Source: an uncultured Conexibacteraceae bacterium
GTDB taxonomy: Bacteria > Actinomycetota > Thermoleophilia > Solirubrobacterales > Solirubrobacteraceae
DNA length: 64,000 nt
Assembly: GCA_963731005.1 (NCBI GenBank)
Contig: CAVSTZ010000001.1
Span: 1,585,776 to 1,649,775 of the forward strand
Direction: 5' to 3'
The notes beneath the pieces were generated by a model, which saw nothing but the letters and a program-made list of their open reading frames with translations, made no database searches and was not told where the DNA came from. Below are positions 5,804 to 12,194 of this stretch, in pieces (positions within the stretch are counted from its first letter, which is position 1; each line of letters begins with the position of its first letter). The position numbers and the translations under genes were made by a program.

Positions 5804-7290
5804 TCACGCCCGCGCCGCGCCGCCGCCGCGGCGCGGGTCGCCGGCGCCCGTCAGCGCGCCGGTCGCGCGGTCGCGCTCGACCGCCTGGACGCCGCCGAAG
5901 AACAGGTTGCGCGCGCGGAACGGCGCGAGCGTCCGGCCGGCCGGCGTCGAGCGCCGTCAGCGTCGATCCCCGGCTCGGCGTAGACCGACGTCGTCCTCGA
6001 AGTGCAGCGCGCGGCGCCTCGACCGCCGCGCGCGGCGTCGAGGCCGTGGTCGACGACGCCGACGATCGTCTGCAGGATCGCCGAGCGGATCCGGTTGGAG
6101 CCCGCGCTGCCGAGCGACCAGCTCGACCTCGCCGTCGGCGCCGAGCACGACCGTCGGCGCCATCATCGACGGCATCCGCCGGCCCGGCGGCGCGGTGAGA
6201 AGCCGAGCGGGTTGAGGTCCTCCTCGCCCATCATGTTGTTGAGGTGGATGCCCGGTGCCGGGGACGACGAGGCCGGAGCCCTCGCCGTTGGTGCACGTCA
6301 CCGCGCACGCGCGGCCGTCGCCGTCGAGCACCGAGATGTGCGTCGTCGAGCCCAGCTGCGCGGCCAGGAAGCGCTCGAGGAAGCCGGGCTCGGCGAGGCC
6401 CGTCGACGAACTCCGGCGTGCGCGCGTCCTGGGCGCCCTCCATCACGTCGACGAGCGTCGGCCGGCGACGGCGGCGGCCCGCCGGCTGCGCGTCGAGCCG
6501 CGCCAGCGCGAGCGCGAGCAGGGTCCCGCCGGCCGACGGCGGCGGGTTGGTGAGCGACCGTCGCGCCCGCGGTAGGCGACCCGCACCGGCTCGCGCGCGA
6601 TCGGCTCGTAGCCGGCGAGGTCGGCGCGCCGTCAGCATGCCGCCGCGCGCGCGCGACCCAGGCGACGACCGCGGCGGCGATGTCGCCGTGTAGAACGGCG
6701 CGGCGCCCTCGGCGCCGAGGCGCTCGATCGTGTCGCCCAGCTCGGGCTGAGCGAAACGCTCGCCCTCGCGCAGCGCGCGGCCGCCGGGCGCGAACAGCGC
6801 GGCGGCCTCGCGGCGTCGAGAGCAGGATCCCCTCGAGGATCTCGAAGACGTAGGCCTGCGGCGCGTTCAGCGCGACGCCGTCGCGCGCGAGCGCCGCGGC
6901 GGGCGCGGCGAGGTCGGCCAGCGGCAGCGTGCCCCAGCGGCGCGCCGCCTCCTCGAGGCCCGCCGGCGTGCCCGGCACGCCGCACGACGCGGCGCCGACG
7001 TGGAAGATCTGCATCGCGTCGCCGAACGAGACCTCGATCGGCAGCAGCGGCGCGCGCGCTCGCCGTCGCGCCCGGCGCGGCGACGAAGAAGTCCAGCAGC
7101 GTCGGCTCCTGCCCCGGCGCCGGCCACGAGCATGTAGCCGCCGGCGCCCGGCCCGGTCAGCAGCGGCTCGGCGACCCACGACGCCAGCATCGCCGCGATC
7201 GCCGCGTCGACGGCGTTGCCGCCCGCGCGCAGCACGCGCGGCGCCCGCCTCGGCGGTCACCGGATGCCCGGCGGCGACGATCCCCTCCAT
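5804..7290 (-). CDS. ggt: Gamma-glutamyltransferase family protein; frameshifted
   Basis: [26 protein letters not shown], catalytic [45 protein letters not shown]. Confidence 0.9.
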
Positions 7291-7357
7291 CAGCCGATCC
7301 TGACACCAAGCCGCCATCAGGCCTGCCCCGGCAGCCTGACCGCGCGACCCGAACGAC

Positions 7358-7386
7358 CGAGGGCCCGCGATCGGCGCGGGCCCTCG
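7358..7386 (-). terminator. Hairpin terminator downstream of ftsZ
   Basis: 12-bp perfect stem CGAGGGCCCGCG / CGCGGGCCCTCG with a 5-nt loop. Confidence 0.65.
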
Positions 7387-7413
7387 AAGCGTGCTGCACG
7401 GTGTCGGCGGCGT

Positions 7414-8986
7414 CTATCGGCGCGGCAGGAACTCCGGGACGTCGAGGTCGGAGACGACGCCGCCGCGGCGGACCGCGATCGGCTCGCGCTGCGCGGTCAC
7501 CGCGCGGCGTGCGGCGCTCGACGCGCGGCTCGCCGCGCCCGGGCTCCTCGATCCGCGGCTCGGCCGACGCTTGGGCGCGTCGCCGTAGCCGGTCGCCACG
7601 ACCGTGACCCAGACCTGGTCCTCGAGCTTCTCGTCGACCATCGCGCCGAAGATGATGTTGGCGTCCGGGTGGGCGGCCTCCGCGACGGCCTTGGCCGCCT
7701 CGTTGACCTCCCACAGCGACAGGTCGCGGCCGCCGGTGATCGACAGCAGGATCGAGCGCGCGCCCTCCATGCTCGTCTCCAGCAGCGGCGAGGAGACGGC
7801 CTGCTCGGCGGCCTCGATCGCGCGCTTGTCGCCGGTGCCCATGCCGATGCCCAGCAGCGCCGCGCCGGCGTCGGACATGATCGTCCGCACGTCGGCGAAG
7901 TCGAGGTTGATCAGGCCCGGGAGCGTCACGAGGTCCGAGATGCCCTGGACGCCCTGGCGCAGCACGTCGTCGGCGACGCGGAAGGCGTCGACCATCGACG
8001 TGTGCTTGTCGAGCACGCTGAGCAGGCGGTTGTTGGGGACGACGATCAGCGTGTCGACCTCGTCGTGCAGCGCCTCGATGCCGACCTCGGCCTGCTCGCG
8101 CGCGGCGCGTGCCCTCGAAGCCGAACGGCTTCGTGACGATGCCGACCGTCAGCGCGCCGATCTCGCGGGCGATGCGCGCGACGATCGGCGCCGCGCCGGT
8201 GCCCGGTGCCGCCGCCGGCGCCGGCGGCGATGAACACCATGTCGCTGCCCTTCAGCAGCGCCTTGATGCGGTCGTACTCCTCCATCGCGGCCTGGCGGCC
8301 GAGGTCCGGGTTCGAGCCGGCGCCGAGCCCGCGCGTGACCTGCGGGCCGATGTGCAGCGTGATGTCGGCGGTCGACTGCTGCAGCGACTGCAGGTCGGTG
8401 TTGATGGCGAGGAACTCGACGCCCTCGACCTCGGCCTCGACCATGCGGTTGACCGCGTTGACGCCGGCACCGCCGACGCCGACGACGCGGATCACCGGCG
8501 AGCCGGCGACCTTGGCGCCCCAGGGCGACTCGTCGTAGCTCGCCGAGCTGCGGGCGTAGGGGTCCGCGGCAGGCGCGGCCGGCGCCGGAGCCGGAGCCGG
8601 AGCCGCGGCGCGCGGCTGCCGGAGCGGCGGGCGCGGCGACCGGCGGGGCCAGGATGTCGTCGGGCAGCTCGGAGCAGAACGCGTGGCGCAGGCGCTCCTG
8701 CGGCGACGGGCGCGCGCGGCGCTCGTGCGACCTCGGGCTCCGGATCGGCGCGCCAGCGACGGATGCGGGTAGCCGCGTCTCGCGCGGATCGGCGCCGGCG
8801 GCGGCTCGGCGGCGGCGGGCCGTCAGTCGGGCGCGGCGGGTCGGCGCTCGGACGTGCCTTGCGGAGCGGCGGCGTCGCCTGCGGCGTCGCCGGCTCGGCG
8901 CGGCCTCGGCGCGCGTCCTCGTCGGTGCGGCGGAAGAGCGCCGCCAGCGGGCCCTCCCGCATGCTCGCGCGCTTACCGCTTGCCAT
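7414..8986 (-). CDS. ftsZ: Cell division protein FtsZ with a ~160-aa N-terminal extension; frameshifted
   Basis: [17 protein letters not shown], tubulin motif GGGTGTG, T7 loop [10 protein letters not shown]-terminal peptide DLDVPEFL. The core starts at 8495. Upstream in-frame codons ([23 protein letters not shown]) have coding-like GC3 and no start codon. Confidence 0.93.
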
Positions 8987-9731
8987 TGGCGAGAACCTCC
9001 TTCGCGAGATCGCGATAGGACTGGGCGGCCATCCCGTCCGGTTCGTACTTCAGGACCGACATGCCCTTCACGGGCGCCTCGGCGAAGCGGATCGTCTTCT
9101 TGATCCGCGACGCGAAGACCCGGTCGCCGAAGTTCTCCTCCAGGATCTCGATCGCCTCCTTGGCGTGGACGGTGCGCGTGTCCATCAAGCGTCGGCAGGA
9201 TGCCCTCGATCTCGACGTCCGGGTTGAGGTTCTCGCGGATCATCTGCAGCGTGTTCTGGAGCTGGATCAGCCCGCGCATCGACAGATACTCGCACTGCAC
9301 GGGGACGATCACCTTGTCCGCCGCCGTCAGGGCGTTGATCGTGAGCAGCCCGAGGCTCGGCGGCGTGTCGATGCAGACGAAGTCGTAGTCGTCCTCGATC
9401 GGCTTGAGCGCCTTCTGCAGCGAGCGCTCGCGGCCGATCTGCGTCGACATCGCGATCTCGGCGCCGGCGAGGTCGATCGACGCGCAGGCGATGTCGATCT
9501 CGCGCTTGCGGATCACCTCGCGGATCGAGCATGTGGTGGACGAGCACGTCGTACATCGACTGTCTCGAGCGTGTCGGGGTCGATGCCCTGGGACATCGTC
9601 AGGTTGCCCTGCGGGTCCATGTCGACGCACAGGACGCGGTGGCCCTTCTCGGCGAACGCGACGGCGAGGTTCAGCGTCGTCGTCGTCTTGGCGACGCCGC
9701 CCTTCTGGTTGGCGAAGGCGATGACCTTCAT
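8973..9731 (-). CDS. ParA/Soj family ATPase, with no parB in the window; start could be 9783
   Basis: Deviant Walker A ANQKGGVAKTTT, VDMDPQGNLT, IDTPPSLGLLTINALTAADKVIVPVQCEY, IRFAEAP. The stop overlaps the start of the FtsZ extension. Confidence 0.93.
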
Positions 9732-9831: not shown

Positions 9832-10029
9832 CTAAGCGCGCACGTCGATGTGGGCCCCGGAGCCCGGCGCGACGGGCGCGACCGCCGGCGACTCGCCGTC
9901 GTCGGCGTGCTCGAGGGCCTGGAGGAACTCGCCGTCGACGAACGGGTTCGTGGGCTTGGCGAAGGTCCGGGTGATCAGGACTTCGGCCAGCGACGGTGCT
10001 CCATGCGGGAGGCTGGGCGAAACGGACAT
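9832..10029 (-). CDS. Small hypothetical protein (65 aa) ending GAHIDVRA
   Basis: Open frame MSVSPSLPHGAPSLAEVLITRTFAKPTNPFVDGEFLQALEHA... with GC-rich codon usage; fills the intergenic gap. Confidence 0.5.
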   Translation of the reverse strand: MSVSPSLPHGAPSLAEVLITRTFAKPTNPFVDGEFLQALEHADDGESPAVAPVAPGSGAHIDVRA

Positions 10030-10111
10030 GGTCAGAGTCGCATCGACCGGTCGTCCGCCGGCTTGAGCCTGTCCAGCCGGTTCTGGACGCCAGTAGGGTC
10101 CTGCGGGCGAG

Positions 10112-11060
10112 ATGCGGGAGCTCCTGACCAAGCCGCTGCTCGTCGTCACCGGCAAGGGCGGCGTCGGCAAGTCGACCGTCGCGGCCGCGCTGGGCTGGCG
10201 GCGCCGCGCCGCGGGCTGCGCACGATCGTCGCCGAGGTCGCGCGCGCGCGACGACGTCTCGCGGGCGCTCGCCGACGCGACGCGCCCGAGGGCCGACGTT
10301 CGACGAGCGCGAGCTCGCGCCGGGCCTGCACCACATCTCGATCGACCCCGAGGCCGCGCTGGAGGAGTACCTGCGCGACCAGCTGCCGCGCGGCGCTGGC
10401 CGACCTGCTCGCCTCCAGCCGCGATGTTCGGCCTACCTCGCCGCGGCGACGCCGGGCATGCGCGAGCTGCTGACCGTCGGCAAGGTCTGGGAGCTCGCGC
10501 AGCCCGAGCGCCGCACGCCGGGCGCCGCATCCCTACGACCTCGTGATCGTCGACGCGCCCGCGACCGGCCACGGCGTCGCGGTGCTGACGCGCGCCGCGC
10601 GACGTTCGCCGACGCCGCGCGCGTGCGGGCCGATCGCGCGCCAGGGCGCGCATGATCGACGCGATGCTCGCCGACCCGCGAGCAGACCGGCGATCGTCGC
10701 GGTCGCCACGCGCGCGAGGAGATGCCGGTCAACGAGACGCTCGGCGCTGCGCGACGCGCTGCGCGACGAGCTCGGGCTCAGCGCTCGGCCGCGGTCGTCG
10801 TCAACGGCGTGCTGCCCGACGCGCTTCACGCGCGCGCCGACGGCGCGGCGCTGGCGACGGCGCGCGCCGGCGGCTCGCGCGCGGTGCGCGCCGCGCGGCC
10901 GAGCGCCGCGCGCGCGCGCGGCCCAGCGCGCGCAGCTCGCGCGGCTGCGCCGCGGCGTCGCCGGCGTCGAGGTGCCGCACGCTGCCGCTTCGTCTTCGAG
11001 CCGACGGCCTCGGCGCGCCGACGCGCTCGCGCGCGCTGGCGCGACGAGCTGGTCCGGTGA
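10112..11060 (+). CDS. ArsA/Get3-like ATPase, subunit 1 (Rv3679/BagA-like); heavily frameshifted
   Basis: VVTGKGGVGKST, PGMRELLTVGKVWE, DLVIVDAPATGHG, EEMPVNET. Confidence 0.85.
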
Positions 11061-12194
11061 GCGACCTCGCGCGAGCGCCTCGAGGGCAAGCGCGTCGTGC
11101 ATCTGCGCCGGCTCCGGCGGCGTCGGCAAGACGACGACGTCGGCGGCGATCGCGCTCGGGCTGGCGGCGCGCGGGCGCGCGGGTCGCGCGTCGTGACGAT
11201 CGACCCCGCGCGGCGGCTGGCCGACGCGCTCGGGCTCGAGCGAGCTCGGCAACGAGCCGCGGCGCGTCGACGCCGAGCGCTTCGCCGGCCACGGCATCGA
11301 GATCGCGCGGCGAGCTGTGGGCGATGATGCTCGACCCGAAGCGCGACGTTCGACGAGCTGATCGAGCGGCTGGCGCCCGACGACGCGCACGCGCGACGAG
11401 ATCCTCGCCAACCGCATCTACCAGCGAGCTGTCGAGCGCGGTCGCCGGGCTCGCAGGAGTTCACGGCGGTCGCCAAGCTCTACGACCTCGACCGCGTCGG
11501 GCCGCTTCGACGTGCTCGTGCTCGACACGCCGCCGTCGCGCAACGCGCTGGACTTCCTCGACGCGCCCGACCGCCTGACCGGCTTCTTCGAGGGCCGCGC
11601 GCTGCGGCTGTTCCTGCGCGCCGACGGGGCTGGCGGCGCAGGTCATGGGCCGCGGGACGAGCGTCGTCTTCTCGGTGCTGCGAGCGCGTGACCGGCGTCG
11701 ACCTGCTGGACGACCTGCGCGTCTTCTTCCGCGCGCTGGCGGGCTGATCGACGGCTTCCGCGAGCGCGCGGCCGGCGTCAAGGCGCTGCTGCGCCGACCC
11801 GCGCGACGACGTTCCTGATCGTCACCTCGCCCGAGCGCGAGCCGGTCGAGGAGGCGATCTTCTTCCGCGGCAAGCTGCGCGAGGCGGGCATGCCGTTCGG
11901 CGGCCTGATCGTCAACCGCGTGCACCCGCTGGCGCCGGACGGCGACGACGAGGTCGACGAGGCGGCGCTCGCCGCGCGAGCTGGGCGGCGACGCGGCGCT
12001 GGCGCGCAAGGTCGCGCGCGACGCTGCGGCGAGCTCCGCGTGCTCGCCGCACCGCGACGCGCGCGCCGATCGCGCGGCTGCGGCGCCGAGCTCGGCGACG
12101 ACGACCCGATCGTCGTCCCGCACCTCGACGGCGACGTCCACGACGTCGACGGGCTGGTCGCCGTGCACCGGCATCTGTTCGCGGAGGGTGCTGA
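11057..12194 (+). CDS. ArsA/Get3-like ATPase, subunit 2 (Rv3680/BagB-like); frameshifted, end approximate
   Basis: [59 protein letters not shown] overlap with the previous gene. Confidence 0.87.

Follow-up and report, generated by a model that had tools for sequence, protein, structure and literature searches.

ParA-family ATPases commonly bind the N-terminal region of a partner that frees them from DNA (PMC11407121), and a hydrophobic pocket of ParA receives the peptide of ParB (PMC12462528). In Myxococcus xanthus, PomZ, a nucleoid-associated ATPase of the ParA type, positions the FtsZ ring via PomX and PomY and is activated by a short basic peptide at the N-terminus of PomX (PMC13170346). 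ParG of plasmid TP228 combines a flexible N-terminal tail, which binds the ParF dimer and stimulates hydrolysis, with a ribbon-helix-helix (RHH) domain at its C-terminus (PMC7308502). How the division site is chosen in actinobacteria devoid of Min is an open question. The parA2 gene has been called ubiquitous in actinobacteria, in a paper that mentions Conexibacter (PMC4255298). Loss of PldP results in variable cell length and minicells (PMC3989709), and septa are misplaced in its deletion mutant. A 2025 preprint, which states that the partner or activator of PldP is unidentified, ties this protein to Tat dynamics and never mentions FtsZ in its text (10.1101/2025.07.02.662783).

Here, we describe a module of Thermoleophilia in which an orphan parA gene overlaps a second ftsZ gene, ftsZ2, whose product starts with a conserved peptide. 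With strong support from sequence comparison, this architecture is real and class-wide; it is apparently undescribed, and it would represent a variant of cargo positioning by ParA. Like PomXYZ, the module would bring together a ParA-type ATPase, a short activating N-terminal peptide and FtsZ (PMC13170346), but where the Pom system has two separate activator proteins, the candidate activator peptide is carried by the FtsZ paralog, in two linked genes. With ParA2 (PldP Cg1610, Rv1708, SCO1772), for which division-site phenotypes are known, the module ParA shares its orphan status without parB. The ParA2 unit also has a similar peptide on an overlapping downstream gene, with scpA next in some lineages; however, this downstream gene codes for a likely RHH protein of 110-190 residues, or is absent, where the module has FtsZ2. 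The anatomy of ParG, in the type Ib ParF-ParG system, matches that of this free-standing small partner. The module has a complete FtsZ in place of the RHH domain of ParG, which would make a protein filament, and not a centromere, its cargo. As for the ParB/Spo0J motif, it is, like the FtsZ2 peptide, a short hydrophobic helix, and the pocket that takes it is kept by the module ParA, but the ParB motif has a central Arg or Lys between glycines that the FtsZ2 peptide lacks, and FtsZ2 has no ParB domain. Finally, the duplicate FtsZs of Hyphomicrobiales are, like FtsZ2, lineage-wide paralogs outside of the dcw cluster; they are mostly truncated at the C-terminus, unlike FtsZ2, which is full length and has an N-terminal tag, and no link to ParA appears in the accessible part of that text (bioRxiv 10.1101/2025.09.29.679267). 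Our literature search, in which subscription journals were thinly covered, yielded no paper on the parA-ftsZ2 module; large dcw surveys may list the duplicate in their supplements. Thermoleophilia are absent from the accessible text of two papers on FtsZ evolution.

The reading developed below is that, by way of its N-terminal peptide, FtsZ2 both activates a nucleoid-bound ParA and serves as its cargo. We consider the case for it to be evenly balanced.

The parA-ftsZ2 locus and the state of its assembly

The module is on the minus strand of the window, i.e., the whole stretch of 64,000 nucleotides that was analysed. The parA gene (9731-8973) codes for an orphan ParA/Soj-type ATPase (PF13614), ~251 residues long in relatives. 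Its TAA is located 14 nt within the downstream ftsZ2 gene, in agreement with the overlap described in an earlier note on this DNA. The ATG of ftsZ2 at 8986 is preceded by a Shine-Dalgarno sequence, AAGGAGG (9002-8996), within the 3' end of parA, and translational coupling is likely. The N-terminal peptide (8924-8986) is a predicted ParA-binding tag, given its conservation and its likeness to small partners. It is followed by a Pro/Ala/Glu-rich linker, predicted to be disordered (8496-8923), which contains a second motif, P[ST][AP]Q[ED]RLxxAFSxx[IL]PxD[IV]L (8650-8709), a predicted amphipathic helix according to pattern counts and to a helix in the structural model. A third linker motif, HPRETGYPHPSL (8755-8800, minus strand), recurs in many relatives of the same family. 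The FtsZ GTPase and C-terminal domains (7580-8495) then lead to a C-terminal peptide and the stop codon (7414-7452). Past the gene, the terminator reported in the earlier note corresponds to a GC-rich 13-bp hairpin (7357-7387; z -2.85 for a 91-nt fold); it remains a possible one, but it has no U tract and was not called by a terminator scan of the window.

As assembled, ftsZ2 is not a single open reading frame in the window: its sequence is split among three frames, and there is a TGA at 8492. Compared with eight of eight aligned relatives of the same genus, the window has extra single bases near 9563, 9529 and 9190, which shift the frame of parA, and near 8206 and 8099, which shift that of the FtsZ domains. 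Contigs from four out of four soil runs, representing other strains than that of the window, have one base fewer at ~8202, 9185-9187, 9529-9530 and 9561-9563. Two of the libraries behind these contigs are RNA; the module is covered, with no listed piece across the linker, and transcription is not readable from them. The genome of the window amounts to 4.4 Mb in three contigs, and its completeness score of 55.8% despite so few contigs fits indel errors in the assembly. Read from the relatives and the soil contigs, the frame breaks in parA and ftsZ2 are most probably assembly errors.

The fusion across relatives

We collected 85 loci of second ftsZ copies, namely all 60 lower-scoring copies of one order except that of G030, an unpublished genome, plus 20 loci from other orders and five from family f7. 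At least two PF00091 matches are present in 60 of 61 related genomes, a sample that includes G030, and the remaining genome has none. At 77 of the 85 loci, the peptide and FtsZ share one reading frame. The fusion claimed in the earlier note thus exists in relatives, although the window gene itself is broken. The note had also stated that no start codon precedes the IRVVG sequence of the FtsZ core; there is a GTG immediately ahead of it, at 8495, but this codon is in frame with the peptide in intact relatives. A Shine-Dalgarno-like word together with a start codon within the 25 codons before the core is found at only four of the 77 in-frame loci. The alternative that a true stop at 8492 makes the extension a separate protein, with a small gene followed by a short FtsZ that restarts at GTGA, is ruled out by the intact fusion of the relatives.

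The proposed synteny of parA and ftsZ extends across Thermoleophilia: parA overlaps the start of ftsZ2 by 4-71 nt at 75 of the 77 in-frame loci, the other two being at contig edges, and Shine-Dalgarno-like words of 4-6 nt precede 75 of the 77 starts. As for the eight loci without an in-frame peptide, four are at contig edges, two are frameshifted, one (L104) was missed by our pattern yet has a variant peptide, and the last is L064. In the latter, an intact-looking ftsZ2 starts in mid-linker right after an unrelated gene, with neither peptide nor parA, which is either a misassembly or a real loss of both.

In a scan of named genomes starting from ParA, the peptide was present at 80 of 80 loci. 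Three of these run off the locus; of the other 77, whose length allows a verdict, 70 have peptide and FtsZ in one frame, in one case with a later stop, and seven shift frame at scattered places of the linker. That these breaks occur at differing places fits indel errors. Most of these loci are titled Solirubrobacterales, Solirubrobacteraceae or Thermoleophilaceae. The FtsZ-first and ParA-first sets may overlap, and kin within each set are not independent. One locus titled Bifidobacterium breve (L283) has the same ParA at 85% identity, with the peptide behind it, and is probably a mislabelled metagenome-assembled genome.

The neighbours of parA-ftsZ2 differ among orders, and the pair is never separated in the selected loci. 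The scpA gene directly follows ftsZ2 at four of four loci of family f8, and at four of the 77 overall; in one of the former (L111), scpA and scpB were confirmed by Pfam. In the window, a short open reading frame (9832-10030, minus strand) lies 5' of parA on the same strand, and L079 has one of 95 residues at the matching position, without Pfam match. Recurrent neighbours of the module in Solirubrobacterales are, upstream, a divergent pair of genes for ArsA-like ATPases (10112-12000, plus strand) and, downstream, a gamma-glutamyltranspeptidase gene (5950-7290, minus strand); both are frameshifted in the window assembly.

FtsZ2 and the dcw-linked FtsZ1

Two or more PF00091 matches were found in 117 of 121 Thermoleophilia genomes. 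Outside of the class, 135 of 140 genomes, a tally that includes four unpublished ones, have a single match, one has none and four have two. A second, dcw-linked ftsZ had been envisaged in the earlier note, and the genome of the window does carry an ordinary ftsZ1, with a short N-terminus, in synteny with the dcw cluster of a relative. In the class, ftsZ1 is dcw-linked at six of six loci scanned, with mur genes directly upstream and ftsQ recognisable or not. This rules out that ftsZ2 replaces the normal ftsZ. Neither a ParB nor a member of a dcw family was detected among 56 selected open reading frames at 13 ftsZ2 loci, as had been claimed for the vicinity of the window gene. The four two-copy genomes outside of the class are the four sampled members of family f40, and at L146:5522-8166, L147 and L148, the pair is in tandem in the dcw cluster, with strongly diverged copies. 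Given this location and their position outside of the FtsZ2 group, a kinship of these copies with FtsZ2 is not supported.

In a core tree of 58 of the 82 rows, a branch with 98/94 support sets the FtsZ2 proteins apart on one side. In this unrooted tree, an origin of FtsZ2 from FtsZ1 has an AU p of 0.24. The GTPase motifs are intact in FtsZ2, with GGGTG[TS]G in 75 of 75 proteins and the T7 loop pattern in 70 of 75. The structural model of the intact homologue L079 superimposes on PDB 1RLU with an rmsd of 0.9 A over 302 columns. The pattern of the C-terminal anchor peptide, which likely binds SepF, occurs in 66 of 75 proteins, and SepF is present in 121 of 121 class genomes; the nine misses are three variants, one truncated protein and the five members of family f7 (L129-L133), whose long tails are devoid of the terminal pattern in five of five cases. 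FtsZ2 of f7 thus does not fit a membrane-tied ring in that family. FtsA was found in 20 of 20 genomes of family f11 (e.g., L142:6072-7505) and in none of the 101 other class genomes.

Might FtsZ2 be a filament unrelated to division, TubZ-like or a scaffold, that ParA moves for the sake of another cargo? That FtsZ1 alone is in the dcw cluster, that FtsZ2 of f7 has no anchor pattern and that FtsZ2 branches are longer than those of FtsZ1, including in a quick tree of all 82 rows, would agree with such a role. Nevertheless, FtsZ2 scores above the cut-off of the ftsZ equivalog (413 bits for L079 on TIGR00065, with a cut-off of 295), its core is ~61% identical to that of mycobacterial FtsZ, and the C-terminal peptide is retained in most proteins, as counted above; we find a non-division filament very unlikely.

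The ParA of the module

K10 (signature), K15 (Walker A), D39 (catalytic Asp), R185 and K211 are conserved in 75 of 75 homologues of the module ParA, and position 214 is Arg or Lys in all of them. By mapping through PDB 8RAY, with an inferred offset, we found that the module ParA keeps the DNA-binding residues matching R209 and R238 of the M. xanthus protein and the pocket residues matching L150, L152, L155 and L192. The Glu that receives the ParB arginine (E117 in M. xanthus) is an Ala in 74 of 75 module ParAs; it is kept in 26 of 27 ParB-linked ParAs. The module ParA forms a 100/100 group of its own, and the ParB-linked ParAs a separate 100/98 group, in a tree with 60 of the 77 rows. The module ParA is placed as sister to a third orphan family, ParA3, with 65/46 support; it groups with ParA2 in 12% of the bootstraps, a placement that the AU test does not reject (p=0.37). 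Its identity amounts to 47% with ParA2, 45% with ParA3 and 44% with ParB-linked ParA, and it has five diagnostic residues in common with ParA3 and one with ParA2.

The absence of a nearby parB, as announced in the earlier note, was borne out by tblastn, with no ParB match in the flanks of 85 of 85 loci; an AGERR motif test for parB gave 17 matches, none of which was confirmed by tblastn. A separate parA-parB pair is present in five of five class genomes checked and in the genome of the window. The module ParA is no MinD by TIGR01968 (55 bits, with a cut-off of 213), and MinD was detected in none of the 121 class genomes at E<=1e-40.

In a class without MinD, the intact DNA-binding residues would also suit a negative control of division, in which ParA-ATP on the nucleoid captures the tag of FtsZ2 and blocks or breaks its filaments over DNA, akin to nucleoid occlusion or to MipZ, which inhibits Z-rings by direct contact with FtsZ (PMC11407121). 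However, the tag is on a disordered tether of 44-245 residues, far from the polymer interfaces, so that tethering fits better than capping, and the likely 1:1 coupled synthesis of the two proteins suits a partner pair. We regard such an inhibition as distinctly unlikely.

The N-terminal peptide, the linker and the second motif

The conservation of the peptide that the earlier note had proposed extends to the whole class: its S, L, L and F are invariant in 77 of 77 in-frame loci, which is partly built into the pattern that defines it, R or K stands ahead of the S in 77 of 77, and T is found in 76 of 77. Neither Pfam nor NCBIfam has a model for it. A search of 1.84 billion representatives yielded 1109 matches at E<=0.001. 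Among the best 150 of these, 126 are under 150 residues and fragment-like, and eight reach the FtsZ start pattern; no other domain was seen to recur, by eye, in the 24 longer ones. The entire N-terminal extension has 44-245 residues in relatives, with a median of 137. In the FtsZ2 model, the core is ordinary and the linker disordered; there are two short helices, one formed by residues 15-18 (pLDDT ~60) and the other by residues 126-134, in the second motif (pLDDT ~74). The pattern of the second motif was found in 44 of 53 extensions from the order of the window and in none of 24 from other orders, and it is thus a feature of that order only. We rejected the idea that it stands in for a missing membrane anchor, as SepF is ubiquitous in the class and FtsA is also absent from motif-less orders.

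The peptide quite likely binds the module ParA in one way or another. It could otherwise be a relic, kept solely for translational coupling to parA and non-binding, as it begins within the 3' end of parA and as the overlap reaches 65-71 nt in family f11. At most loci, however, the overlap is of 4-17 nt and the conserved core of the peptide is outside of it; moreover, the peptide is near-fixed over 13 families while the length of the adjoining linker varies about fivefold. A mere relic is hence highly improbable.

The small partner of ParA2 and a possible origin of the peptide

We searched 44 genomes of other classes with a ParA profile. Behind the best matches comes either a small overlapping gene, whose product starts with RRASLPGADELFRxT, or directly scpA. 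The ParA2 clade is presumably that of PldP, Rv1708 and SCO1772, a naming that we base on scpA adjacency and gene order. The protein of 110-190 residues behind ParA2 has a conserved peptide at its N-terminus and a C-terminal domain of RHH-like type (L204-L233, L174-L183), and scpA follows it at four loci; in L184-L186, scpA likewise comes after the ParA2 unit. The C-terminal domain resembles many RHH proteins, with Z of 3.5-5.0, a range that the tool calls a common arrangement. A Foldseek search with the small partner gave nothing at E<=0.001, and it has no model in Pfam or NCBIfam. From its sequence features, it is a candidate activator of ParA2 and possibly binds DNA.

On a profile of the FtsZ2 peptide, the N-termini of 26 small partners have a median score of 6.3 bits, and the best reaches 14.7 bits; 13 of them are above all 5830 background N-termini, and 25 above the 99th percentile of the background. 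The earlier note had likened the peptide to the LGRGL-type peptide of ParB, a view that we abandon: 27 ParB N-termini score at most 2.9 bits on the same profile, i.e., at background level. Candidate partners of the third orphan family reach at most 1.0 bit (11 candidate starts at nine loci). An hhalign comparison between the FtsZ2 peptide and the small partner gave an E of 0.00025 and a probability of 43% over 17 columns. By these scores, the FtsZ2 peptide resembles the start of the small partner more than that of ParB; so short a likeness could stem from convergence on a common pocket. In seven loci with a third orphan ParA (L245, L246, L248, L250, L252, L258 and L198), small proteins with two CxxC pairs come next, several of which carry a PLGKRALF-like motif and might be another type of partner.

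The free-standing small partner was found in 40 of 140 genomes outside of the class, including three unpublished ones, and in none of 121 inside. This distribution and the likeness of the peptides would fit a takeover of the partner slot by FtsZ2. It is tempting to speculate that a copy of ftsZ took the place of the DNA-binding domain in a ParG-like partner gene, whose ParA tag was kept.

A possible mechanism of ring placement

If FtsZ2 is activator and cargo, ATP-bound dimers of ParA would cover the nucleoid. In the hydrophobic pocket where the two subunits of the ParA dimer meet, the peptide would form a short helix and set off hydrolysis, probably through the arginine that precedes the invariant serine and not through a central arginine as in ParB. 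The filaments of FtsZ2, which would probably contain FtsZ1 as well and be anchored at the membrane by SepF, would expose many peptides on long tethers, deplete ParA locally and be ratcheted to a balance point over or between nucleoids. The division site would thereby be marked as by PomXYZ, with no adaptor. In its broadest form, our proposal is that the ring of Thermoleophilia is placed by an adaptor-free parA-ftsZ2 machine that arose by swapping FtsZ into the gene of a partition partner, and that the peptide identifies the activator of ParA2 in lineages with the small partner; we put this a little short of an even case.

The influence might also run in the reverse direction, with the ring placed by other means and the tag of FtsZ2 recruiting ParA, or stripping it from the DNA at midcell, in order to clear the chromosome or to time the activity of SMC-ScpAB to division. 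The scpA gene behind ftsZ2 at all four f8 loci fits this idea, as do the binding of Rv1708 to ScpA and ParB (PMC10482377), the enrichment of PldP at septa (10.1101/2025.07.02.662783) and the DNA-binding type of fold of the likely ancestral partner. Nevertheless, scpA adjacency is limited to those four of 77 loci, all five class genomes checked have a complete ParA-ParB pair apart from the module, and no MinD is available to place the ring. We therefore deem this direction unlikely.

The module also means that this common class of soil bacteria has carried two full-length FtsZs ever since it arose. If the tag works, two purified proteins and DNA would suffice to rebuild the positioning of a Z-ring, with less complexity than in PomXYZ, and gene fusion would have switched what a ParA carries. 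The small RHH-like protein would then become a named candidate activator in genomes of the Streptomyces type. In one genome of family f11 (L107:1305-2747), dnaA is divergent and just upstream of parA-ftsZ2, which may put the module near oriC.
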